Source: Escherichia phage ECML-1
Reading direction: 5' to 3' (one strand)
Length of the DNA stretch: 64,000 nt
Sequence record: OL631478.1
Positions 40,706-64,000 of the stretch are shown here, in pieces (within the stretch, counting starts at the first letter, position 1; each line of letters begins with the position of its first letter). Below the pieces are notes generated by a model that saw nothing but the letters and a program-made list of their open reading frames with translations, ran no database searches and was not told the DNA's origin. Both the position numbers and the translations under genes were made by a program.

Positions 40706-41174
40706 AGAATACCTGCACTATGACCCCGAAACAGGGGTCTTTACTTGGATTAAGAAGTCTGCTAAGCACACAAAAATTGGTTCTGTTGCAGGTACAAACT
40801 TAAGGGGATACATCAGAATCTATTTGTTTGGTAAGGGTTATTATGCACATACACTGGCTGTTCTGTATATGGACGGTTACCTTCCTGAGTGTGTTGACCA
40901 TAAAAACCATGTAACCCTAGATAATCGCTGGATAAATCTTAGGGCATGTACGTTATCAGAGAACCAATGTAATAGGTTACTCAATAAGAATAATAAATCA
41001 GGTGTTAAAGGTGTGTACTACAAAAAACAGTATGGTAAGTGGGCTACACAGATAACTTTTAAGAAGAGAGTTTACTTCTTCGGCAACTATGACACGATTG
41101 CTGAAGCAGCAGAGGTTGTAAATAGGGAACGCCAACGTTTACACAGAGAGTTTGCTAATAAAGGTGATGAATGA
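40659..41174 (+). CDS. HNH homing endonuclease with AP2-like DNA-binding domain
   Basis: YAHTLAV...CVDHKNHVTLDNRWINL (HNH) and NKSGVKGVYYKK...WATQI (AP2-like); paralog of 53570..54061. Confidence 0.65.
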   Translation: MISMGGHQMLTQQTLKEYLHYDPETGVFTWIKKSAKHTKIGSVAGTNLRGYIRIYLFGKGYYAHTLAVLYMDGYLPECVDHKNHVTLDNRWINLRACTLSENQCNRLLNKNNKSGVKGVYYKKQYGKWATQITFKKRVYFFGNYDTIAEAAEVVNRERQRLHREFANKGDE

Positions 41175-41671
41175 GAAAAATAAAAGGTTTTGGCAATTGC
41201 CCTGAATATGGTCACTGGATTTCACTATGTGGTGAAGTTGACCCAGCAAAGCACTTTGGTTTTGTCTACCTAGTGTACTGTAAAAAGACTGGACAGTACT
41301 ATTTGGGTAAGAAACAGCTTAATAGTGTGACCAAAAGAAAAGTTGCTGGGAAGACTCGGAAGAAGGTAGTCACTAAGGAGAGTGATTGGATGACTTACGA
41401 AACCTCTTCTGAGTATATTAAAAAAGATATTGAGAGCTTTGGAAAAGAATTTTTTGACTTTTACATTATTCAGACCTACTACACAAAAGGTGGCCTAGTC
41501 TATGGTGAAGCAAACCTTCAACATAAATTCGATGTAATGACAAAAAGGATTGACTCGAAGCTCAGACTCTTCTACAATGCCAATATTGCAGCAATTAAGT
41601 TTATTACTAAAGAAACTTATGAAGATGCTGAAAAAAGAATCCATAAGGTAATGAAAGCAAATTGTGCTTGA
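41171..41671 (+). CDS. Putative GIY-YIG-like endonuclease
   Basis: FVYLVYCKKTGQYYLGKK resembles GIY-(N10)-YIG motif; weak. Confidence 0.35.
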   Translation: MRKIKGFGNCPEYGHWISLCGEVDPAKHFGFVYLVYCKKTGQYYLGKKQLNSVTKRKVAGKTRKKVVTKESDWMTYETSSEYIKKDIESFGKEFFDFYIIQTYYTKGGLVYGEANLQHKFDVMTKRIDSKLRLFYNANIAAIKFITKETYEDAEKRIHKVMKANCA

Positions 41672-52679: not shown

Positions 52680-53561
52680 ATGAAAACTGTTATTGAAGCC
52701 GTCATCACCGCACAAGAGAAATTCTTCCACACAGAAAAATTTAATATCATCCAATTCCCATCTGGAGAAATTGGTGGAAACTTCTCTGAAGATTTTGTTA
52801 AGTTTGCTGAGCGTAATGCTGGTAAGATTGATAATGTTATATTTACTGTACAGGGGTATGACAAAGATACACTGTTTGCATTAGCTTTGGCTAAGGATGC
52901 CGTTGACAGTCTTGTTCCCCAGAAATCAGCGATGAAAACCGTTGTTTTCGGGTTCTTACCAAATGCTCGATATGACCGCCACATGTTCAAAGGTGATGCA
53001 GCAGCACTGAAAGTCTTTGCCAACCTTGTTAATGCAATGGGTTTTGATGCAGTATGTGCTCTTGACCCTCACAGTAATGTTGCAGAAAACTTATTTAAGT
53101 GTTTTCAGAGCATGAAGCAAAAAGATGTGGCAGTACACTTTGCAAGTGACCCACGCATTGATTTCTTAGTAGCCCCAGATGCAGGTGCAGCTAAGAAGAC
53201 TGAAGATGCCGCTAAAGAGGTAGATAAACCATATATCACAATGTCTAAGGTGCGCAATCTTAAGACTGGAGAAATCACTGGTATGCGAATCCTTGATGAT
53301 GTTGATTTGACAGATAAAACTGTCATGATTCTTGATGATATTTGTGATGGTGGTCGAACCTTCGTAGAAGCAGCGAAACATCTTCGTGAAGCAGGTGCAA
53401 AACGTGTGGAACTCTATGTAACACATGGTATCTTCTCTAAAGGTGTTGAAAACCTTCTTGACAATGGTATTGACCATATTTACACTACAAACTCTTTAGG
53501 CGAAGCTAAAGACCGTGGCTTAACACACTATGGTCAAGTTACTGTAGCAACCATTGATTAG
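52680..53561 (+). CDS. prs: Ribose-phosphate pyrophosphokinase (PRPP synthetase)-like protein; possibly ADP-ribose pyrophosphokinase of a NAD+ reconstitution pathway
   Basis: PRPP/phosphoribosyl-binding loop MILDDICDGGRTF; 293 aa; adjacent to NAMPT-like gene. Confidence 0.7.
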   Translation: MKTVIEAVITAQEKFFHTEKFNIIQFPSGEIGGNFSEDFVKFAERNAGKIDNVIFTVQGYDKDTLFALALAKDAVDSLVPQKSAMKTVVFGFLPNARYDRHMFKGDAAALKVFANLVNAMGFDAVCALDPHSNVAENLFKCFQSMKQKDVAVHFASDPRIDFLVAPDAGAAKKTEDAAKEVDKPYITMSKVRNLKTGEITGMRILDDVDLTDKTVMILDDICDGGRTFVEAAKHLREAGAKRVELYVTHGIFSKGVENLLDNGIDHIYTTNSLGEAKDRGLTHYGQVTVATID

Positions 53562-53569
53562 GTAACAGT

Positions 53570-54061
53570 ATGAATAAGGGTTATTTTGAAAAATACCTAA
53601 TATATGAACCAGATACAGGTTTATTAATTTGGAGAGTAACCCTTTGCAGTACCGCTATTGCTGGTAATGTGGCTGGCACAAGGTCTAAGAAGGGTTATAT
53701 CCAAGTCCAGATAAATAAGAATAGGTACTATGCACATAATATTGCATGGATTATGTCTGGAGGTGAGATACCAAGTGGATATGAGATAGACCACATAGAC
53801 CTTGATAAAGCTAATAATAAGTTGGAGAACTTAAGACTTAGCACAAAGTCACAAAATCAGAGGAATAGAGGTATATACAAGAATAATAAAACTGGTGTGA
53901 AGGGTGTAAGTTTTTGTAAACAAACAGGTCTTTACAAAGCAAGAGTCACGCTTTACCATAAAGAATACTTTTGTGGAAGATTTAAAACGGTAGAAGAAGC
54001 AAAAGAAGCTGTAATTAAAAAGCGAATAGAACTTCATGGTGAGTTTGCAAGACATAACTAA
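53570..54061 (+). CDS. HNH homing endonuclease with AP2-like domain (second paralog)
   Basis: YAHNIAW...EIDHIDLDKANNKLENL and NKTGVKGVSF...LHGEFA; parallels 40659..41174. Confidence 0.65.
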   Translation: MNKGYFEKYLIYEPDTGLLIWRVTLCSTAIAGNVAGTRSKKGYIQVQINKNRYYAHNIAWIMSGGEIPSGYEIDHIDLDKANNKLENLRLSTKSQNQRNRGIYKNNKTGVKGVSFCKQTGLYKARVTLYHKEYFCGRFKTVEEAKEAVIKKRIELHGEFARHN

Positions 54062-54075
54062 GAGAGAGATAAAAT

Positions 54076-55857
54076 ATGAGTAAGTCACTTTACGCAGTAC
54101 CAGCAGGTCTTAATGCAGATGCTTACAAGGCATCACATATATATCAGTATCCAGATGCTACGCAATATCTTATGTTGAACCTGACACCACGTAGTGACAA
54201 ATGGTTTAACAGTCCATTAGCAATTGATGGTGTAGTCGCTTTTGGTATTCAACGTTTTGTTAAAGATTACTTGATAGACCACTGGAATGCCACCTTCTTT
54301 GAACGTGACAAAAAAGAAGCAATTGACGAAATCTTAGAAGTCATGAACGGTGTTCTGGGCAAAGATGCTATTGGTCGAGAGCATTGGGAAGCACTTCACG
54401 ACTTAGGTTATCTGCCAGTCGAAGTATACGCTGTAGAAGAAGGCACAGTTGTTCCTATGCGTGTCCCAATGATTGTCTTCCAGAACACTGTTTCAGGTTT
54501 CCATTGGGTAGCAGGTTATCTGGAAGATGCTTTCTCTGCTGAGATTTGGAAGGCTTGCACTATTGCAACTATTGCATTGCATTACAAACGCATCTGTAAG
54601 AAGTGGGCTGACCTTACTTGTGACAACGACTTGCATCTGCCCTATCAGTGTCATGACTTTGCTATGCGTGGTATGTCAGGCTTTACTGATGACGCATTTA
54701 ATGCTGTAGGTCACTTAACCAGCTTTAAAGGGACTGATAGCTTCCCTGCTGTATACACGGCTAAACGAATCTATGGACAGTCCTACCCAATCTCTGATAT
54801 TGGTAGTTCTGTACCAGCCACTGAGCACTCTGTAATGTGTGCAAACATTGCTTGGGAAGGTGGTAATGAGTTGATTGAAGAAGAAAGACGCTTTAAAGGT
54901 GAGTTACAAACCTTCCGTCGTTTCTTAACAGAAACTTACCCAACAGGTATTGCAAGCATTGTTTCAGATACTTATAACTTCTGGAGAACTGTGTCAGAAA
55001 TCTTACCAGCACTTCGTAAAGAAATTATGGAACGTGATGGCAAACTGGTAATTCGCCCTGACTCTGGAGACCCTGTACATATTGTCACAGGTTATAAAGC
55101 AATCCACTTAGAATGTGCTAAGAAGGCTTATTACGAGCACCTAAGCAAGCTGGAAGCCAGTGACACAATGTTGAATGCTGTTCTGAACATGAAGCTTGAG
55201 AACATCAACTATGGTATTGCTGGATGGCTACTGTCAGAAGGCTACGAGATGGTTGTTGACAGAGAAGACTTTGAAGTTGCTGATACAGTGATGTTGAAAA
55301 ATGCTTATATGGTTGGTTCTGCAAACGTTGTAACACGTCCTGTAGCTGAGATTGATGGAGCTATTAAGACACTGTACAACATCTTTGGGGGAACTATTAA
55401 CTCTAAAGGCTTTAAAGTACTGGATGAGCATATTGGACTTATTTATGGCGACTCTATCACGTTGGAACGTGCAAATGAAATACTGAAGCGTTTGTATGAA
55501 ATGGGTTTTGCAAGCTCTAACGTAGTGTTTGGTGTAGGTTCTTACACTTACCAGTACATGACTCGTGACACCTTTGCATTTGCTGTCAAAGCAACCCTTG
55601 CAAGCATTGGTGGTAAAGAGATTATGCTTGCAAAAGACCCTAAAACAGATAGTGGTGTTAAGAAGTCTGCTTTTGGTGGTGTAGCACCTATGTGGGATGG
55701 TGAAAATCTGAAAGCTGTAGATGGCTATGGGTTCCAGAGCTTTGCAGATGCACTTGAACATCCAGCTTGTGCTTTACGTCTAGTCTTTAGCGACTCTGAG
55801 CAGTTCGGCTACACAACTCTTGGTGATATTCGAAATAATATTGACAAGCAGCTTTAA
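54076..55857 (+). CDS. nadV: Nicotinamide phosphoribosyltransferase (NAMPT/NadV)-like protein
   Basis: VIRPDSGDP and IYGDSITLERA motifs typical of NAMPT/NAPRTase family; 593 aa (longer than typical ~480 aa). Confidence 0.75.
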   Translation: MSKSLYAVPAGLNADAYKASHIYQYPDATQYLMLNLTPRSDKWFNSPLAIDGVVAFGIQRFVKDYLIDHWNATFFERDKKEAIDEILEVMNGVLGKDAIGREHWEALHDLGYLPVEVYAVEEGTVVPMRVPMIVFQNTVSGFHWVAGYLEDAFSAEIWKACTIATIALHYKRICKKWADLTCDNDLHLPYQCHDFAMRGMSGFTDDAFNAVGHLTSFKGTDSFPAVYTAKRIYGQSYPISDIGSSVPATEHSVMCANIAWEGGNELIEEERRFKGELQTFRRFLTETYPTGIASIVSDTYNFWRTVSEILPALRKEIMERDGKLVIRPDSGDPVHIVTGYKAIHLECAKKAYYEHLSKLEASDTMLNAVLNMKLENINYGIAGWLLSEGYEMVVDREDFEVADTVMLKNAYMVGSANVVTRPVAEIDGAIKTLYNIFGGTINSKGFKVLDEHIGLIYGDSITLERANEILKRLYEMGFASSNVVFGVGSYTYQYMTRDTFAFAVKATLASIGGKEIMLAKDPKTDSGVKKSAFGGVAPMWDGENLKAVDGYGFQSFADALEHPACALRLVFSDSEQFGYTTLGDIRNNIDKQL

Positions 55858-55871
55858 AAGTATATGATAAG

Positions 55872-55893
55872 AGGCTCCTACGGGAGCCTTTTT
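55872..55893 (+). terminator. Rho-independent terminator
   Basis: AGGCTCC-TACG-GGAGCCT hairpin followed by TTTTT. Confidence 0.6.
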
Positions 55894-55910
55894 AATTTCT
55901 GGAGAAGATT

Positions 55911-56246
55911 ATGAAAATCAAAGAGATGAACATCAACATCGTCTTAGAGGAACGTTGGGAGAACATCAAGAAACCTGAAAATGGTCATAAGTTCCTTAAC
56001 AAAATTTTAGTAGCAGCTAAAGAAGAACTGACTGGTAAGATTGCAGCAGCAATCACAATAAAGGTCTGTGTAAAAGGTCTTCCAGACAATCACCAATTTG
56101 CACTTGACGAGTTTAAAGAAAGCTTCTACAATCCAAATAAACAGATGCTTGAAAGTAACTTTGCAGTATCTACAAGTATCGTCCATGACAGAAGCTTTAT
56201 CCTTTACAAGAATATGAGAGGTGAGTCATGCAAGCATATTGGATAG
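55911..56246 (+). CDS. Hypothetical protein
   Basis: 111 aa ORF. Confidence 0.4.
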   Translation: MKIKEMNINIVLEERWENIKKPENGHKFLNKILVAAKEELTGKIAAAITIKVCVKGLPDNHQFALDEFKESFYNPNKQMLESNFAVSTSIVHDRSFILYKNMRGESCKHIG

Positions 56247-56404
56247 AAATTTTACTGTCACTTGGTGGCGTAGCAGTGTTTGTTTACCTTCTTTGTAAGT
56301 ACTATGCAGAGCACAAAAAATGTGACTACTGTAATGGGGAAGGTTATACAAGAGCAGGTTGTTGCCCTATGTGTGGTGGTTCTGGTAAAATGTTTAACAA
56401 GTAA
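56228..56404 (+). CDS. Small membrane-anchored zinc-ribbon protein (58 aa)
   Basis: N-terminal hydrophobic helix then CDYC...CPMC; below ORF-track cutoff. Confidence 0.3.
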   Translation: MQAYWIEILLSLGGVAVFVYLLCKYYAEHKKCDYCNGEGYTRAGCCPMCGGSGKMFNK

Positions 56405-56432
56405 TTTAACAGTAAACTAAGAGGAAAGTATT

Positions 56433-58799
56433 ATGCGCATGGTAAACGACCACGCAGAAGTGATTAAGAGTTCAACTTCTTTAGAGACGTCTCAAGCACA
56501 GATTACAATGACACCTGAGATGTTCAGCCTTTTGAGTTCTGGTGTATATACCTTTAAAGAAAGGGCAGTGATTCGTGAACTGTCATGTAACGCAGTAGAT
56601 GCTCAGAAAGAAGCTGGAAAAGAGAACATCCCATTCCATGTGCATTTACCTACTCGTTTTGAGCCTTACTTCGAAGTTCGTGATTTTGGAACTGGATTGA
56701 CTCATGATAAAGTTATGAGTTTGTACCTAAACTATGGAGCTTCTACGAAGAATGACTCTAATGACTACATTGGTGCAATGGGTATCGGCTCAAAGTCACC
56801 ATTTGCAATTGCTCAGTCATTCACAGTATCTAGCTATGTTGATGGTGTTGTTAATAAGTACTCTGTTTATCTTGAGAATGGTATCCCTCAAGTAACTAAG
56901 CTGACAACTAACCCAACAAAAGAACCTAATGGTTTAGCTGTACGTGTGGCGGTTGCTGACCACCGTATCTCAAAGTTCTTTGAAGAAGCTGGGAATGTGT
57001 ACTCATACTTCACTGTAAAACCAGAAAGTAATATTGAGTACGACGATGTATTAGCAGATATGAACGTCATTGCCCGTGAAGAAGGTGTTTATGATGCCAT
57101 GATTCATAAGCACAGCTGGCGTTCTAGTGATAACAGGACAGAGTTTAATGTGGTGATGGGTAACATTGCCTACCCTGTTAACATGGAAGCATTACTTGGT
57201 GATGATTTCTTCAAAGTATTGCCAGAATTTTTCCGTAGGAGCGTAGACCTTGTAAACATCTACATGCCTATTGGTTCAGTCGCTATTGCAGCTTCTCGTG
57301 AAGCATTGCAGATGAATGACACGACAAAAAATGTTATCATTGAGGCTACTAAAAAGATAACTGAAGCAATTACAAAGGATGTTATCAAGAAAGTTAACAG
57401 TCAACCTACACTCATGGATGCTGCACAGGCTTATGCTGAGTTACGTTTGAACTCACGAGAGATGTTTAATGCTGTGTGTCCAAAGTTAGAGTGGGGAGGC
57501 GTTAAGCTTGATTCTCTGGAAGAAGAATTACTAAACATTCGTCGTGGAATTATCTACGCAGAAGACGGCTCAGTCATTTATGAACGTGACGGTAAAGGTA
57601 ATATTAAGGTTGATAGGAACGGAAACAACATCCCTAAAGTAGATTATCTTTATGACCCAGTTGCTTATGTCAAGTTCAACTCTTTAGAGAGTAAGATTCG
57701 TGCAACAGCACTTTCCTACACTCAAGAGGCAAGTATGTTCAATATCTTTGGCGCAATGCGTAAAAGCCAAATTGAACAGTTTTTGTTTGTTATAAATGAC
57801 CGTCGCAATAAAAATGGTACTGAGAAGACTGTAGGACGCAACCAAATCTTGCGTGGTGCATGTCGAGACTATGCCAGTGAGTCAAGTCTGTTTCACAGAT
57901 ACAATGGTATTGTCTTTGTATTCTCGACTGAAAAAGAGTTAGATGACTTAATCAATCTGCACAAACTTGATAAAAGCTTGTTAAAGATTGTGAAAATGTC
58001 TGATAAGGAACACCATTACCAGCGTAAAGAAGCTGTAAGAGGTGTTGTAAAACTCTGGAAAGCTGTTCCAGCAGAAGGTGTAGCTTCCTATAAAGAGGTT
58101 TCAGAGGACTTTGATACAATTGAAGAGCCTCAGCTTTACATTAAGGCAGTTGGTGATACAGTTGATGGTAGATGTTTTTGCTCATCTCCAGAAGATGTAG
58201 CTAAGTCAGTTGCTAATGTTACAGGTAAGACAGTCTATGTTTTCCGAAAAGCAAATTGGAAAAAGATACCAGAAGATTGGATTGAAGTAGATGAGAAACT
58301 CTTGAACGACAGCTTAACTGATGTTCACTGGATTAACCATAACAGATATATGACGCGTATCTATATGAATGGTGTCCTTGACCTTACAAGCAGTTGGATT
58401 ATTGCCAGAAACTTTACGTTTAATAACAGGAAGATTTCTCGCGGGTATTGTTATTCAAGGGATACTATTAAGACAATCTTCTTAGAAGGGAATGAAGATG
58501 CTGTTGAGGCAATGTTTGGTAAGATTCAGTATGTGGCTGCACCGTTTGCATACACTTACACTATCAGTGTTCTTCAGGATTTGAAGTCATGCCTTGATAA
58601 TGACACAAAACTGTACAAAAAGATTAAGAAAGCAGGTGACCGCATGGTTATCAAGCTGACAAACTATCTTTCAAAAAGAAAACAAGAAAACTTCTTGCTT
58701 TCACACTTAGATTGGAATAAAGTATCACCTATCGAAGTGAGTAAGTTTTTAGGCTTTGATGTGAAGTGTGTTCCAGAAGGGACTACAATTTACGATTAA
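56433..58799 (+). CDS. rIIA: rIIA-like protein
   Basis: N-terminal region FSLLSSGVYTFKERAVIRELSCNAVDA resembles T4 rIIA N-terminus (from memory); 788 aa; followed by rIIB-like gene. Confidence 0.65.
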   Translation: MRMVNDHAEVIKSSTSLETSQAQITMTPEMFSLLSSGVYTFKERAVIRELSCNAVDAQKEAGKENIPFHVHLPTRFEPYFEVRDFGTGLTHDKVMSLYLNYGASTKNDSNDYIGAMGIGSKSPFAIAQSFTVSSYVDGVVNKYSVYLENGIPQVTKLTTNPTKEPNGLAVRVAVADHRISKFFEEAGNVYSYFTVKPESNIEYDDVLADMNVIAREEGVYDAMIHKHSWRSSDNRTEFNVVMGNIAYPVNMEALLGDDFFKVLPEFFRRSVDLVNIYMPIGSVAIAASREALQMNDTTKNVIIEATKKITEAITKDVIKKVNSQPTLMDAAQAYAELRLNSREMFNAVCPKLEWGGVKLDSLEEELLNIRRGIIYAEDGSVIYERDGKGNIKVDRNGNNIPKVDYLYDPVAYVKFNSLESKIRATALSYTQEASMFNIFGAMRKSQIEQFLFVINDRRNKNGTEKTVGRNQILRGACRDYASESSLFHRYNGIVFVFSTEKELDDLINLHKLDKSLLKIVKMSDKEHHYQRKEAVRGVVKLWKAVPAEGVASYKEVSEDFDTIEEPQLYIKAVGDTVDGRCFCSSPEDVAKSVANVTGKTVYVFRKANWKKIPEDWIEVDEKLLNDSLTDVHWINHNRYMTRIYMNGVLDLTSSWIIARNFTFNNRKISRGYCYSRDTIKTIFLEGNEDAVEAMFGKIQYVAAPFAYTYTISVLQDLKSCLDNDTKLYKKIKKAGDRMVIKLTNYLSKRKQENFLLSHLDWNKVSPIEVSKFLGFDVKCVPEGTTIYD

Positions 58800-58804
58800 A
58801 GTGT

Positions 58805-58834
58805 TTGACAAGGGGCTTCAAAGCCCCTTAGAAT
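58805..58834 (+). promoter_or_regulatory. Candidate sigma70-like promoter with hairpin-forming spacer upstream of rIIB-like gene
   Basis: TTGACA - 18 nt - TAGAAT; spacer contains GGGGC-TTCAAA-GCCCC stem-loop. Confidence 0.45.
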
Positions 58835-58878
58835 AGCCTCACAAATTGATTGATTAACTAACAAGAGAGAGTAATAAG

Positions 58879-59988
58879 ATGACTACTAAAACTAAAGCAC
58901 AGATTGACGCAGAAATTTACAAACTGGTTAAAGAAGGTAAGCTGACCAAAACAGCTATTGCACAGAAATTTAACACTTCAACCCGTTCAGTTGGTCGTGC
59001 TGTAGAGCGTCATGAAGCAACCTTAAAAGGGAAGAAGAAGGTGACTTCTACACCAGCTACGAAGACTTTGAAGCAAGTTGCTAAGACTTTTAAAAAGAAA
59101 GCTGGCAAACCAGTTGAAAAGGTCGTTAAAGACGCTGTACAGAAAGCTCCAGTAAATAAACTGCACGAAGCTATGCAGAAAGATGACAAGATTGAGTACA
59201 TGATTACTGGTGATTCTGTAATTATGACTTATGGTTCAGAATCTGAAATTGTTGAGTCTACTCATCCGAACTATCAAGAGATTGTAGTTCATGTTGTGAA
59301 AGGTGAGTTCAAGAAAGCATTTGAACTGATGAACATTCGTAAGTCTATCGAAAACTTCACTCAGGGTGCTATCACAATCAAAGGCGACAAGCTATTCTAC
59401 GGTGCTGTTGAGATGCGTTCTACTCTGGTTGACCGTATTCTTCACATGATGAAAACTGGCGATAAAGGTTTTGAACGACTTGTAATGTTCTTCGAAAAAC
59501 TGATGGAAAACCCATCTAAAGATTCTGTAGAACAACTTTGGGGATTTGTATCTCACCTTGATGTTGAAATTGATGAAGAAGGCTACATCATTGGTTGGAA
59601 GAAAGTCTCTACTCGTGAAGGCAAGCTGGTTGACTCTCACACCTACAAAGTGCCTAATGATTTGGGTAACATTGTAGAAATGCCACGTTGGATGGTTGAT
59701 AATAACCGTAACGTAACTTGCTCTCAAGGTCTTCATGTTGGTGCTTGGGATTATGTTCGTTGCTTCTCAGGTGATACAATCCTGAAGGTTCGCGTACATC
59801 CACGAGATGTTGTATCTGTTCCAACTGATTACAACGATATGAAGATGCGTTCCTCTCGTTATGAAGTTGCAGCAATCGTTGATAATCAACGTAAAGTGCT
59901 GGAAGCATGGGACGGTAAGACTGAAGCTTTGCATGTCATCGTTGGCACTGCTGGTGAACTCATCTCTCAACGTAAACGTGAAATCTAA
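58879..59988 (+). CDS. rIIB: rIIB-like protein
   Basis: 369 aa gene immediately downstream of rIIA-like gene; N-terminal HTH-like segment; assignment by synteny. Confidence 0.5.
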   Translation: MTTKTKAQIDAEIYKLVKEGKLTKTAIAQKFNTSTRSVGRAVERHEATLKGKKKVTSTPATKTLKQVAKTFKKKAGKPVEKVVKDAVQKAPVNKLHEAMQKDDKIEYMITGDSVIMTYGSESEIVESTHPNYQEIVVHVVKGEFKKAFELMNIRKSIENFTQGAITIKGDKLFYGAVEMRSTLVDRILHMMKTGDKGFERLVMFFEKLMENPSKDSVEQLWGFVSHLDVEIDEEGYIIGWKKVSTREGKLVDSHTYKVPNDLGNIVEMPRWMVDNNRNVTCSQGLHVGAWDYVRCFSGDTILKVRVHPRDVVSVPTDYNDMKMRSSRYEVAAIVDNQRKVLEAWDGKTEALHVIVGTAGELISQRKREI

Positions 59989-60004
59989 TAAGTAATTTCT
60001 TAAA

Positions 60005-60028
60005 AGGCTGCTTCGGCGGCCTTTTTTA
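60005..60028 (+). terminator. Rho-independent terminator
   Basis: AGGCTGC-TTCG-GCGGCCT hairpin followed by TTTTTT; consensus TATAAT -10 box 24 nt downstream at 60052-60057. Confidence 0.6.
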
Positions 60029-60088
60029 TTTGTATTTTGTGCAGAGTGCTGTATAATTGTTGTCACGATAAACTAAACAGGAGAACCA

Positions 60089-60637
60089 ATGAAGAAATTG
60101 ATTCTAGGTTTGTGCTTAATGTTTACAGCACACTTATCTTATGCAGTTGACTGCCCAGAGCTATCAATTAGCCAAAAAGTGAACATGTTAAAAGCTTACC
60201 AGTATGGTGAGAATAACATGGGGAAAGGTTGGGGTATCACTCTAGCAGCTATAGCCTTACAAGAGTCAGAGTTAGGTCTGAAGGTAGAAAATAAAAAGAC
60301 CCATGACTATGGTATCTTCCAGAATCACTTGAAGACTGTTGTAAAGCGTAACAAAATTAGTCCTAATGTTGCTAAAAAGAAACTCTTAAAAGATTTTGAC
60401 TATGCCGCAAAAGAAACACATAAAGAGCTTGAGTTTTGGACGAAGGTACATGGTCACCCAAAGTCAAAGAAGACTTTACAAAAAGTTTTAGCATCATATA
60501 ATGCTGGGTATTCGTACAGAATCCCTAAAGCTAAGAAATACTCTCAAGATGTCTATAACAATATGAAAGTTATCGCTCAATGTGAATTTGCAACAAACAT
60601 TTCTAAGGTAAATCATGAAAAAATTAAGAAAGTCTGA
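60089..60637 (+). CDS. Secreted lytic transglycosylase (SLT-domain)-like protein
   Basis: Signal peptide MKKLILGLCLMFTAHLSYA; AIALQESELG...YGIFQ resembles SLT catalytic ES...GxxQ motif. Confidence 0.5.
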   Translation: MKKLILGLCLMFTAHLSYAVDCPELSISQKVNMLKAYQYGENNMGKGWGITLAAIALQESELGLKVENKKTHDYGIFQNHLKTVVKRNKISPNVAKKKLLKDFDYAAKETHKELEFWTKVHGHPKSKKTLQKVLASYNAGYSYRIPKAKKYSQDVYNNMKVIAQCEFATNISKVNHEKIKKV

Positions 60638-61310
60638 TGAAGTCCTGTGCCACGCTTATGACTTGCATCCTCATGAGTTAGGTCTTGATTCCTGTGTATG
60701 GACTCCAGAACAGTGCAGAGATTTTGAAGACACTGCAAGAGAGGTTGTATGTTCACTTGAAGAGTTCCACACATCAGAACCCATTGTGAACGTTGTGGAC
60801 AAAGAGACTGGACAAACTATAGGTGTAAGGCGTGATAGTTTAGTGATAGTCAATAAAGACCTTGTAGAAAAAGGTAACCTCATCTTAGCAGATATTGATG
60901 GTGTTCTTACAAATTTTAATCACGAAGATTGCTCAACGGAATTGACTGATGGGTCATTCTCACAGTACACTAATCTTCTTGATTCTGTAAGAGCAAAACC
61001 AACATATGTTTTCAACATTATTGATGCAATTGCAAATCATGCAGCAGTTGGACTCTTGACAGCAAGAGGTGAATCTCAGAGAATACCTACTGAGATGTTT
61101 TTAAGGCACAATATAGAGCATGATTACTTGCTTTTTATGCGTGGTTTTGGAACTAACTCTATAAGTGCAGAAAGTTTGAAAGTGAGGATGATTCAGTCTT
61201 GCATTCTTCCTTACTTTAATATAGTATGCTTTATAGAAGATACAGAGAAGAATGTTCAGAAGGTAAACAGAATCCTTCCACACATTAAAACTATGTTAGT
61301 TAAACATTGA
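60615..61310 (+). CDS. Hypothetical protein
   Basis: 231 aa ORF. Confidence 0.45.
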   Translation: MKKLRKSDEVLCHAYDLHPHELGLDSCVWTPEQCRDFEDTAREVVCSLEEFHTSEPIVNVVDKETGQTIGVRRDSLVIVNKDLVEKGNLILADIDGVLTNFNHEDCSTELTDGSFSQYTNLLDSVRAKPTYVFNIIDAIANHAAVGLLTARGESQRIPTEMFLRHNIEHDYLLFMRGFGTNSISAESLKVRMIQSCILPYFNIVCFIEDTEKNVQKVNRILPHIKTMLVKH

Positions 61311-61786
61311 GAGAAGAACTTATGAACAATATCATTACGGTAGCACTGGACGATACGGCAAACAAATCTGAAGTAGTTCGTAAAATGATTCAAGGTAACT
61401 TTGAAGGTAAAATTTTCCGTGCTGTTAATGTAAAAGCTGATGGTAGCATTCGCGAATATCGTGCATTGTTGAACGTTAAGAAGCACGTAAAAGGTGTTGG
61501 TTCAACGACTGCACACAAAGAAAACCTGATGACTATCTATGATATGGGTAAGGCTTCAGAGTTAGGTGCTGAAGGTATCGTTAAAGAAGGTGCTCCGTAT
61601 CGCTCTTTCAATCTGGAAACTACTCTTATGCTTTCCTTTACAAGTGGTTCCAAAACAATCACTTATCTCTTTACTGATGCTGCAACGGTATCTGCTATTA
61701 AGGATAGCACTGTCAAAGCTGGCGTAGTTGCTGCTGCAAAAGCTTCTTCGATGGCTGCGAATATCCTTGCTAAAGTCCTCGGTTAA
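61307..61786 (+). CDS. Hypothetical protein (likely start ATG 61322)
   Basis: ORF followed by strong terminator. Confidence 0.45.
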   Translation: MREELMNNIITVALDDTANKSEVVRKMIQGNFEGKIFRAVNVKADGSIREYRALLNVKKHVKGVGSTTAHKENLMTIYDMGKASELGAEGIVKEGAPYRSFNLETTLMLSFTSGSKTITYLFTDAATVSAIKDSTVKAGVVAAAKASSMAANILAKVLG

Positions 61787-61797
61787 GGTTAAGATAC

Positions 61798-61819
61798 AGG
61801 CTCCTTCGGGAGCCTTTTT
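61798..61819 (+). terminator. Rho-independent terminator
   Basis: AGGCTCC-TTCG-GGAGCCT hairpin followed by TTTTT. Confidence 0.65.
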
Positions 61820-61838
61820 CATTTTAGGAGATTGTTAA

Positions 61839-62186
61839 ATGACATTTAAAGAGTTCTGTCAAGCTACTTTCATAATTGTTTTCTTAGTTGGGGCAGGTGT
61901 CTGGGGAGGATACTCTTACAGAGACTACCAAGTTGCTGAAACTGAGCTAAATAATGAGAAGCTGATAAGTGTTGCTAAAGATGCTTATCAGGAAGGTTTA
62001 GCCACACTCAGCACCAATTACAAAAATGATTTGAAAGACGTGCTTGCTAAGAATAAGCATACAAAAGAGGTACTAACGTATGAAAAGACTAAGCCAGAGT
62101 TTTATAATGTTTGTGTTACTGATAATTATGTCAGGGTGTTCAACGAACAAAGTGAACAGTACATTCAAAAACTCCCAAGTAAGTGA
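61839..62186 (+). CDS. Membrane-anchored protein, candidate i-spanin
   Basis: N-terminal TM FIIVFLVGAGVWGGY then coiled-coil-like region; 3' end overlaps a lipoprotein ORF in another frame. Confidence 0.4.
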   Translation: MTFKEFCQATFIIVFLVGAGVWGGYSYRDYQVAETELNNEKLISVAKDAYQEGLATLSTNYKNDLKDVLAKNKHTKEVLTYEKTKPEFYNVCVTDNYVRVFNEQSEQYIQKLPSK

Positions 62187-62349
62187 GAGTGACAAGTACA
62201 CTCAAGAAGAATCAAGATTCACTGTCAAAGGTAATACTGGTAGTGATGTGGCAGCAGCCCTTGAGTTTTATCGTGATGGTTTTTACCAGTGCACAATCAA
62301 AGCTAATAACCTTATTGATATGATTTTATTAGGAAACAAACAGCAATGA
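62080..62349 (+). CDS. Lipoprotein, candidate o-spanin
   Basis: AAAGAGGT RBS 8 nt upstream of ATG; signal peptide with lipobox IIMSGC; starts inside upstream gene in +1 frame. Confidence 0.45.
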   Translation: MKRLSQSFIMFVLLIIMSGCSTNKVNSTFKNSQVSESDKYTQEESRFTVKGNTGSDVAAALEFYRDGFYQCTIKANNLIDMILLGNKQQ

Positions 62350-62615
62350 CAGAGAATGAAGACACTTTCTATGTAGAAGGGTACTTACTGCTACCACGAC
62401 CAAAAGAAACTTATATGCGGGTTGATTTCTCACCAACCATTATGGATAACGTGATGTGTCATATCTTTATGCAAGGTGTCACAGCACAGCTTAAGCATGT
62501 TGGTAAAGAGTGCAAAATAAAGGTTGACACTCATCCAGAAATCAAAGAGAATCACTACACATGGTTCTTACCAGACTCTAAAGAAATCTTAGCAGTTCTC
62601 AAAACGAGGAAGTAA
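62346..62615 (+). CDS. Hypothetical protein
   Basis: 89 aa ORF, ATGA-coupled. Confidence 0.4.
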   Translation: MTENEDTFYVEGYLLLPRPKETYMRVDFSPTIMDNVMCHIFMQGVTAQLKHVGKECKIKVDTHPEIKENHYTWFLPDSKEILAVLKTRK

Positions 62616-62617
62616 CT

Positions 62618-62941
62618 ATGCAGATTAATGGAAGAGACTTTGTAGCCGTTTACTACGAGAAAGATAAAGAAGTTGGCGTAGCACAAGTATCTTATGGCAA
62701 TGGTAAGTGGTTGTATGGGACAATCGCAGTAGTTGGAACAAGAAGTGATACAAAAACTTTTAAAGATTGTGTTGACCTTCTTGAAGAATCCATCCAGAAT
62801 CATTGGTGTCTGATATGGATGACTGACAACGAAGTGATAGAACGTTTCAAAAAGATTGATATCAACATTGACAGTATTGAGCATGTTGATTTATATGAGC
62901 TAACTGAGAAGGTAAACTATGAAAGCTCTAGAGGTAATTGA
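62618..62941 (+). CDS. Hypothetical protein
   Basis: 107 aa ORF. Confidence 0.4.
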   Translation: MQINGRDFVAVYYEKDKEVGVAQVSYGNGKWLYGTIAVVGTRSDTKTFKDCVDLLEESIQNHWCLIWMTDNEVIERFKKIDINIDSIEHVDLYELTEKVNYESSRGN

Positions 62942-63146
62942 TAAAGACACTGGAGAAGTTACATCAGCATGTGTTTTCGTTAGTGACGACACAGTGATAC
63001 CGTTTTACAATCTCGATAACTTTAGTTTCACAGGGATAACTCCAGAAGAATACTTTGAAGACCTCACCTTTGCCAGAATTTCTATAGATACATTTTATAA
63101 ATGCTTCTATGATGAAGGCAAAGAATTACGAGAAACTGAACTATAA
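62919..63146 (+). CDS. Hypothetical protein
   Basis: 75 aa ORF. Confidence 0.35.
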   Translation: MKALEVIDKDTGEVTSACVFVSDDTVIPFYNLDNFSFTGITPEEYFEDLTFARISIDTFYKCFYDEGKELRETEL

Positions 63147-63158
63147 GGTGTATATTAT

Positions 63159-63359
63159 ATGGCTGACTTCTGCAAAGACTGTTCTATCGAAATGTTCGGA
63201 CGTGATACAGGTGACTTAAAAGGTCTTATCACTGAAGATGACTTTAAAGCTGGCTATGCAATGCCAGTAATCTGTGAAGGTTGCGGGTGTATCTGGGTAG
63301 ACCACGAAGGACAACGTGTAAAACCTTCAGAAGATAAAGAATCTTGGGAGAGATGTTAA
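63159..63359 (+). CDS. Small zinc-ribbon protein
   Basis: 66 aa with CKDC...CEGCGC. Confidence 0.4.
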   Translation: MADFCKDCSIEMFGRDTGDLKGLITEDDFKAGYAMPVICEGCGCIWVDHEGQRVKPSEDKESWERC

Positions 63360-64000
63360 ATGGGTATTGTAAAAGTTGTAAAAGGTAACTTACTGGCTGC
63401 CTTCAAAAACACAGATATTGAGTTAATTGCTCATGGTTGCAACTGTCGTAACCTCATGGGTGCTGGAATCGCTCAAAAAATTGCTAAGATTTTCCCAAAA
63501 GCTGAAGAAGCTGACCGGAAATTCCATAAAAAGTTTGGCTACAGTGCTCATGATATCGGATACCAGATGGTTGGTGAGGTGTCACATGCTCGAACGGAGT
63601 ATGGTTACATTTTTAACCTATATACACAGTTGGATGTTGGGAAGTGTGCATCATACCGATACTTAGTGGAGTCACTAGAAAAACTCCGTAAATTTTGCTG
63701 GCTGCACAACATTCGTAAGATTGGTTTACCCATGATTGGGGCAGGTATAGGCGGTTTAGATGCACAAGCTGTGAAAAGCCTCATTAATAGTGTTATGTAT
63801 AACGTTGATGTGTACCTCTACGTCTATGATGAAGCAATGGCAAGTGTAGTTACCCCTAAGTATGCTACCTCAGCACCACAATTCTATGATGGTGTCGTGC
63901 TAAGTGACGGGAAGACTAATCAAGTTACCCTCTATCAGCTTGTTGATGGCAAGGTTGAGGTTAGTTACCCTCTGGTTAGTGAGATGGGTATGTGTAACAG
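63360..64000 (+). CDS. Macro-domain protein (ADP-ribose binding/processing), 3'-partial
   Basis: ELIAHGCNCRNLMGAGIAQKIAKIF and LPMIGAGIGGL match macro-domain glycine-rich motifs; open frame from ATG at 63360 to window end. Confidence 0.65.
   Translation, partial: MGIVKVVKGNLLAAFKNTDIELIAHGCNCRNLMGAGIAQKIAKIFPKAEEADRKFHKKFGYSAHDIGYQMVGEVSHARTEYGYIFNLYTQLDVGKCASYRYLVESLEKLRKFCWLHNIRKIGLPMIGAGIGGLDAQAVKSLINSVMYNVDVYLYVYDEAMASVVTPKYATSAPQFYDGVVLSDGKTNQVTLYQLVDGKVEVSYPLVSEMGMCN

Follow-up and report, generated by a model that had tools for sequence, protein, structure and literature searches.

A two-domain macro protein at the edge of a Felixounavirus genome window, with a possible role in ADP-ribose-processing counter-defence

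Phage-encoded macro proteins have tested functions in two settings. In phage T4, transposon screening together with a clean knock-out established that growth on DarTG2 needs tk.4, which has been named adfM (bioRxiv 10.1101/2025.11.20.689424). In the other setting, the RES-domain defence aRES, present in E. coli, Klebsiella and Enterobacter, converts NAD+ into nicotinamide and ADP-ribose (ADPR)-1''-phosphate, which the phage NARP1 pathway (enzyme Adps) cannot use; about 15% of NARP1 phages encode in their operon a Poa1p-like macro protein, Adpp, and that of Vibrio phage Gary converts ADPR-1''-phosphate to ADPR and restores NAD+ synthesis, whereupon NARP1 beats aRES (bioRxiv 10.64898/2026.01.28.702374). 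NARP1 itself, made up of Adps and Namat, was first characterised in phage Bas63 (bioRxiv 10.1101/2024.02.11.579819; PMC12774641), by taxonomy a Felixounavirus. Here we consider a homologue of these macro proteins encoded at the very end of a 64,000-nucleotide stretch of Escherichia phage ECML-1 (record OL631478.1; hereafter the window), in a gene that starts at position 63360 and that we refer to as the macro gene.

An ATG at 63360 on the plus strand opens 213 stop-free codons (63360-63998) that continue up to the window end. At the G+C content of the window (39%), the chance of a given frame staying open over this length is about 3e-7, and open reading frames (ORFs) overlapping the macro gene in other frames reach at most 79 amino acids. 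The sequence-only reading, in which this frame was first described from the letters of the window, correctly attributed its absence from the ORF list to the want of an in-window stop; that the frame leaves the window is the sole reason. The two glycine-rich strings quoted there are likewise present, HGCNCRNLMGAGIAQKIAKIF as residues 25-45 and LPMIGAGIGGL as residues 123-133 of the product. The counterpart in Salmonella phage BPS17L1 has 780 nucleotides and encodes 259 amino acids, identical over all 213 residues seen here, and the window therefore misses the final 46 codons and the stop. A frame-breaking stop, which would have undone the sequence-only reading, was seen in none of the relatives with the same macro-gene allele. 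Positions 62000-64000 are 97.6% identical to BPS17L1 at the nucleotide level and are matched by 257 phage records, nearly all Felix O1-like; the window belongs to Felixounavirus. The gene is preceded by an ORF (63159-63359) whose TAA at 63357-63359 directly abuts the ATG, and because of this arrangement the two are probably translationally coupled. The parts of the macro gene are as follows:

63346-63352, plus strand: Shine-Dalgarno-like GGGAGAG as read from the sequence, 7 nucleotides ahead of the start codon.
63360-63830, plus strand: macro domain, residues 1-157, with loop 1 (MGAGIA) at residues 33-38 and loop 2 (GAGIGG) at residues 127-132.
63831-63872, plus strand: linker, residues 158-171, including a short helix in the AlphaFold2 secondary structure, with the lowest model confidence (mean pLDDT 77 for residues 161-170).
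63873-64000, plus strand: first half of a beta-rich C-terminal domain, residues ~172-213; the domain ends at residue 259, past the window.

That the N-terminal part is a macro domain, as the sequence-only reading had proposed, is borne out by Pfam Macro (PF01661), matched over residues 25-140 (E 7e-7) at 29.6 bits where the curated threshold is 22 (28.9 bits for a full-length relative), and by the predicted fold, which agrees with the sequence and has the three-layer alpha/beta/alpha architecture with two glycine-rich loops along the ADP-ribose cleft. The call as such is not new, since Felixounavirus records already annotate it: the GenBank labels on this gene are "phosphatase", "macro domain protein", "Poa1p-like" and "O-acetyl-ADP-ribose deacetylase", and PHROG 335, labelled "phosphatase", is matched at 4e-77. 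The literature searched reports no function for the Felixounavirus protein.

A profile of 34 homologues, taken from a search of 5.8 billion proteins, found its best matches in TARG1/OARD1 (4e-17) and in the DarG proteins of M. tuberculosis and T. aquaticus (~1e-15), and also matched BT1257, SCO6735 (4e-12) and yeast Poa1p (~5e-12), while macrodomains of the MacroD/YmdB type were distant (E > 0.01). Because of this ranking, the profile and structure comparisons place the protein in the ALC1-like (TARG1/DarG/Poa1p) class of macrodomains and not with the MacroD, PARG or viral types. Among the columns of the 34-homologue alignment that are invariant are G9, H25, G26, N28, Q90 and both glycine loops. 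The lysine of the class (K84 of TARG1, K80 of DarG) is absent: a profile alignment sets Gln90, in the motif NLYTQ, against the catalytic Lys84 of TARG1. Since SCO6735 of Streptomyces coelicolor (Q85) and T4 Tk.4 carry a glutamine at the same position, the macro protein is, as judged from these alignments, a Gln variant of the ALC1-like class. In SCO6735, Gln85 occupies the structural position of TARG1 K84 and DarG K80, its replacement by alanine abolishes activity (PMC9411070), and the enzyme efficiently removes thymidine-linked ADP-ribose from DNA (PMC9411070; synthetic substrates, PMC12879935). The equivalence of Q90 and Q85 is drawn through TARG1 K84, with which both align, together with the published structural alignment.

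The likeness to these class members has its limits. SCO6735 (PDB 5E3B), an ALC1-like protein with Gln at the catalytic position, is encoded on a bacterial chromosome, has a long mobile loop and lacks a comparable C-terminal domain. The eukaryotic enzymes of the class, yeast Poa1p and human TARG1/OARD1, serve in housekeeping or repair, and the K84/D125 dyad of TARG1 contrasts with Gln at position 90 of the macro protein and with D134, which is not conserved in its family. DarG of DarTG2 (PDB 5M3I, 5M31, 7OMU) shares the overall plan of two domains, of which the N-terminal one is a macro domain. DarG is also the best NCBIfam match and the only one with E < 0.01, as well as the only match in PADLOC, in both cases with the macro part alone. 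In the macro protein, however, the catalytic lysine is replaced by glutamine, and the DarG family model NF048014, which describes the whole protein including the DarT-binding C-terminal domain, is matched with just 56.7 bits against a cut-off of 250. A full DarG antitoxin is ruled out by this score and by the restriction of the match to the macro part, and no darT gene lies next to the macro gene, either in the neighbourhood analysed or in the annotation of a near-identical phage.

The macro family is widespread, with tblastn matches in 2,825 phage records, T4 among them, where the homologue sits between vs and tk.3 and thus is tk.4. T4 Tk.4 is 33% identical to the macro protein (BLASTP, E 1e-22), and the two have in common the motifs HGCNC, MG(A/S)G(I/V)A, NLYTQ and IGAGIG, an 8-residue loop after the glutamine, and a setting among early, non-essential genes. 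The macro protein can hence be described as an orphan macrodomain, encoded by a phage and related by homology to an AdfM of tested function. Unlike T4 Tk.4, which at 155 residues is a macro domain alone, it has an extra domain of ~88 residues, and unlike its phage, T4 is without NARP1; moreover, the T4 function was shown genetically, whereas that of the Felixounavirus protein is predicted. The chimallivirus AdfM, PhiKZ gp104 (PMC13309987), is more remote, with ~23% identity; it retains the DarG-type lysine (PTK, K78) where the macro protein has TQ, and it undergoes import into the phage nucleus, a structure not known from Felixounaviruses.

We tentatively favour, at a little short of an even chance, the reading that the product of the macro gene is an ADP-ribosyl hydrolase used by the phage for counter-defence, ALC1-like and belonging to the NLYTQ subgroup with T4 Tk.4 (AdfM). 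Such a protein would presumably be synthesised early, from the gene block after rIIA/rIIB. Its macro domain would bind the ADP-ribose put by host DarT2 on thymidines of single-stranded phage DNA, which is the substrate we envisage, and would hydrolyse the C1''-N bond, so that ADP-ribose is freed and the DNA can be replicated again. The reaction would proceed as in SCO6735, Gln90 replacing the lysine of TARG1 and DarG and Asn28 lying on the opposite side of the pocket. The C-terminal domain would be dispensable for C1''-N hydrolysis, since T4 Tk.4 has none, and probably serves targeting, oligomerisation or partner binding. The evidence that leans this way consists of the DarG library matches, the invariance of N28 and Q90, the homology to T4 Tk.4, and, as set out below, the trees, the loop length, the context of relatives and a divergence island with a fast-diverging C-terminal domain.

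Neighbour-joining trees over 150 columns, which included T4 Tk.4, PhiKZ AdfM, TARG1 and macro proteins associated with NARP1 (one at first, then eleven from Table S1 of the aRES preprint), united the macro protein and its relatives bearing the C-terminal domain with T4 Tk.4 and further stand-alone NLYTQ macro proteins in a single clade, with the NARP1-associated ones outside. Support was moderate: the macro protein grouped with T4 Tk.4 and without Adpp in 149/200 and 65/100 bootstraps, while the converse grouping, with Adpp and without T4, was recovered in 2/200 and 2/100. The loop after the glutamine points in the same direction, being 8 residues long in the macro protein and T4 and 10-15 residues long, starting with Y-x-[Y/W], in the NARP1-associated proteins. 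Of the stand-alone relatives whose gene neighbourhoods were looked up, the three nearest have no Adps or Namat gene within 6 kb. On sequence evidence, an AdfM-like function is mildly favoured by the trees, by loop length and by where the gene lies.

Several observations weigh against it. Just 42/100 bootstraps yielded a clade of the macro protein and T4 that contained no NARP1-associated macro protein; T4 Tk.4 resembles the Adpp-like protein of Vibrio phage Cody (35% identity) no less than it does the macro protein; and in a tblastn search with the macro protein as query, the NARP1-associated macro protein of Pseudomonas phage JG004 scored slightly higher than T4 (87 versus 78 bits). A phosphatase for ADPR-1''-phosphate would, moreover, be useful to this phage, which combines NARP1 with a single macro gene. 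Finally, a basic macro domain (pI ~9) was considered as a sign of a DNA substrate and discarded, as T4 and PhiKZ AdfM are acidic.

The macro gene stands out by its divergence within an otherwise conserved neighbourhood. Compared with phage warpig, the flanks show 93-99% nucleotide identity and the macro gene, from ~63400 onward, 42-62%. The window's allele is found in 12 of ~256 Felixounavirus records and is carried by phages such as BPS17L1, FSL SP-107 and phiWec172; the other alleles have ~40% protein identity to it and form several classes that are 64-93% identical among themselves, Bas63 and Felix O1 being examples with the common allele. Islands of this sort are usual in genes that directly oppose variable host proteins, which may be the case here. 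A second, smaller island coincides with a 75-residue ORF two genes upstream (62919-63146, plus strand), which lacks a Pfam match and has 33-66% nucleotide identity to warpig in surroundings of 96-99%. The ORF in between (63159-63359, plus strand) encodes a Cys-rich protein of 66 residues (CxxC ... CxxCxC) that is 98% identical in warpig. Its pairing with the macro gene is not general: a distant relative (L008) has a different small CxxC protein at this place, and another relative (L009) an unrelated protein.

The C-terminal domain (residues ~172-259, ~88 residues) is predicted by AlphaFold2 as a confident beta-rich fold, both in the whole protein and alone. In a profile search of 1.84 billion representative proteins, it occurs solely fused to this macro family; apparent unfused copies (114 residues, and a 54-residue fragment) proved to be shortened ORF calls of the same protein. 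It is lacking in T4 Tk.4, PhiKZ AdfM and Adpp. In more distant Ounavirinae-like contigs, the two-domain gene keeps its position, following rIIA, rIIB, a lytic-transglycosylase-like gene, a PNKP-like gene and small genes. The domain changes at about twice the pace of the macro domain (9-31% versus 41-53% identity), and its isoelectric point ranges from 4.6 to 10.2 across alleles, which rules it out as a DNA binder or DNA mimic in general. Its profile gives weak matches, in several stretches, to beta-propellers of the PQQ/BamB and sortilin/BNR types, and for one of these propeller matches hhalign gave an alignment of 69 columns with 57% probability. With its motif P-x-[FY]-D-G-V...G-K...S-Y, the domain looks like one to two propeller blades, which we take as no more than a lead. 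One rather unlikely idea is that the domain gives the protein a second mode of action, as the second domain of DarG does, by blocking a toxin (DarT2 or aRES), by docking onto the replication machinery or by assembling into a ring, the last suggested because of the weak resemblance to one to two PQQ-type blades. Allele replacement would then track host toxins, and a single gene might deal with DNA ADP-ribosylation as well as RES-type NAD+ phosphorolysis, the resulting ADPR being passed on to NARP1.

The best-surviving alternative to an AdfM-like hydrolase is that the macro protein acts as an Adpp-like ADPR-1''-phosphate phosphatase in trans with NARP1, removing the 1''-phosphate so that Adps and Namat can rebuild NAD+ after aRES. 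We consider this unlikely on balance, while giving it real weight. The NARP1 genes of the window are:

52680-53561, plus strand: Adps-like gene (annotated Prs), the first NARP1 gene, with Pfam matches Pribosyltran and Pribosyl_synth.
54076-55857, plus strand: Namat-like gene (annotated NAMPT), the second NARP1 gene, with Pfam matches NAPRTase and NAMPT_N.

The operon is kept across 259 phage records, nearly all Felix O1-like. The macro gene, the only one of its kind in the phage, lies in the same genome, strand and gene block as NARP1, and its product is 29% identical (E 8e-14) to Cody gp176, a near-identical relative of the tested Gary Adpp (KNV71_gp137). Adpp and the macro protein belong to the same macro family, have Gln at the same position, come from phages with Adps and Namat, and share the motifs H-x-C-N-C, G-x-G-I-A and Y-x-Q. 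Within these motifs, Adpp has H-Q-C-N-C, V-Y-G-Q and a 15-residue loop, and the macro protein H-G-C-N-C, L-Y-T-Q and the short, T4-like loop of 8. The Adpp gene, which encodes no C-terminal domain, sits between Adps and Namat, whereas the macro gene starts 7.5 kb after the end of Namat (55857 to 63360), with about a dozen ORFs in between, rIIA and rIIB among them; it is hence outside the distance of two genes from Adps/Namat that defines NARP1-AP. In Table S1 of the preprint, for which two genes on each side of the operon were scanned, no Escherichia or Salmonella phage is listed among those with NARP1-associated macro proteins. The very rare grouping with Gary Adpp in the trees and the lack of NARP1 neighbours around the nearest stand-alone relatives speak against this alternative as well, and a small-molecule phosphatase offers no obvious reason for a fast-evolving extra domain or for allele replacement. 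Only if the protein is Adpp-like could the Adps-like and Namat-like genes be its metabolic partners.

Two observations concern NARP1 loci themselves. In Vibrio phage Cody (L010, 2578-5584), the operon has the order Adps, macro gene, Namat, and gp176 is annotated as hypothetical. In the window, the Adps-like and Namat-like genes are separated by an ORF of 163 residues (53570-54061, plus strand); where relatives match the stretch in full, their annotation here is an HNH homing endonuclease, while many other Felixounaviruses are without the segment and match the NARP1 stretch in two pieces, which looks like the insertion of a mobile endonuclease within the operon.

Both functions that the sequence-only reading had put forward, the removal of ADP-ribosyl marks and the feeding of ADPR into NAD+ regeneration, are thus published mechanisms for homologues of the macro protein, and its cautious suggestion of ADP-ribose-processing counter-defence gains support from homology to T4 Tk.4/AdfM and Gary Adpp. 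Mark removal has in its favour that T4 Tk.4 is needed on DarTG2, yet sequence does not settle the choice between the two. The NAD+ link has become more apt than originally stated, because the "Prs/NAMPT" pair is NARP1, which consumes ADPR and for which a mechanism via Adpp is published; its weak points are the place of the macro gene, outside the NARP1 operon and 7.5 kb from Namat, and the frequency of the family in phages without NARP1, T4 included.

The two activities need not be separate. A single promiscuous enzyme might hydrolyse any leaving group at C1'', be it thymine in DNA or phosphate in ADPR-1''-phosphate, and so cover DarTG2 as well as aRES while supplying ADPR to NARP1. AdfM-type and Adpp-type proteins form one sequence family with the same best PDB relatives, both reactions cleave a bond at C1'', and the phage combines one macro gene with NARP1. 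We nevertheless think this distinctly unlikely, given that DarG is described as DNA-specific (PMC9411070), that the differing loop lengths after the glutamine suggest specialisation of both groups, and that the literature searched reports no family member assayed on both substrates.

Other ADP-ribose targets appear more doubtful still. These would include modified proteins or RNA (for example, CmdTAC-type mRNA), the cyclic ADPR isomers that serve as Thoeris signals, which might be degraded or sequestered, and O-acetyl-ADP-ribose, which might be deacetylated. The fold relatives TARG1 and SCO6735 do act on proteins as well (PMC9411070), a comparative survey argues that phage macro proteins chiefly target soluble ADPR derivatives (PMC9503650), and some GenBank records carry the deacetylase label. 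A close stand-alone relative (P0027; L013, 6001-8073), moreover, is encoded two genes from a Tad2-like (anti-Thoeris) gene. On the other side, no tested homologue shows such activities in a phage, the deacetylases of the MacroD/YmdB type are the distant ones in the profile search, and the strict conservation of N28 and Q90 speaks for an enzyme and against a sponge. Another close stand-alone relative (P0028; L014, 6001-12465) is found near an ADP-ribosylglycohydrolase and an Alt-like ADP-ribosyltransferase.

Highly improbable, finally, is housekeeping in Poa1p-like RNA repair, that is, the clearing of ADPR-1''-phosphate left by Tpt1/KptA-type removal of 2'-phosphate from repaired tRNA, which is where the "phosphatase" label comes from: the PHROG 335 match, the Poa1p-like N-terminal motif and a gene annotated as polynucleotide kinase 2 kb upstream fit it, but hypervariability is unexpected for a housekeeping enzyme, that upstream ORF (60615-61310, plus strand) is without a Pfam match here, and a self-regulating or RNA-repair role becomes less likely because the annotation of a near-identical phage's complete genome includes no ADP-ribosyltransferase, RNA ligase, Tpt1/KptA or 2H phosphoesterase. 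The polynucleotide kinase label of ORF 60615-61310 comes from relatives, and its counterparts in distant relatives have weak or faint HAD_PNKP matches. Elsewhere in the window, an ORF of 166 residues (41171-41671, plus strand) matches the SegE GIY-YIG endonuclease domain (E 9e-27); the "NAD synthetase" label that the BPS17L1 RefSeq record gives to an equally long gene at the equivalent place looks wrong.

Judged by its sequence relatives, the macro protein is best filed with the phage counter-defence macrodomain family (AdfM/Adpp), as its two-domain form. While this assignment will not surprise a specialist, interest attaches to the orphan domain, to the replacement of alleles and to the lone macro gene in a NARP1 phage. 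The gene links Felix O1-like phages to two arms races of recent description, that of DarTG2 and AdfM and that of aRES and NARP1 with Adpp. These phages find wide use in the typing, biocontrol and therapy of Salmonella and E. coli, and knowing which defences they disarm helps to predict host range. If DarT2-modified DNA is indeed the substrate, AdfM would reach a third major phage group and gain a two-domain form; if the macro protein instead supplies NARP1 in trans, NARP1-AP would be commoner than the operon-based figure of 15% of NARP1 phages. An orphan C-terminal domain combined with allele replacement between sister phages provides a concrete handle on how counter-defence enzymes diversify.

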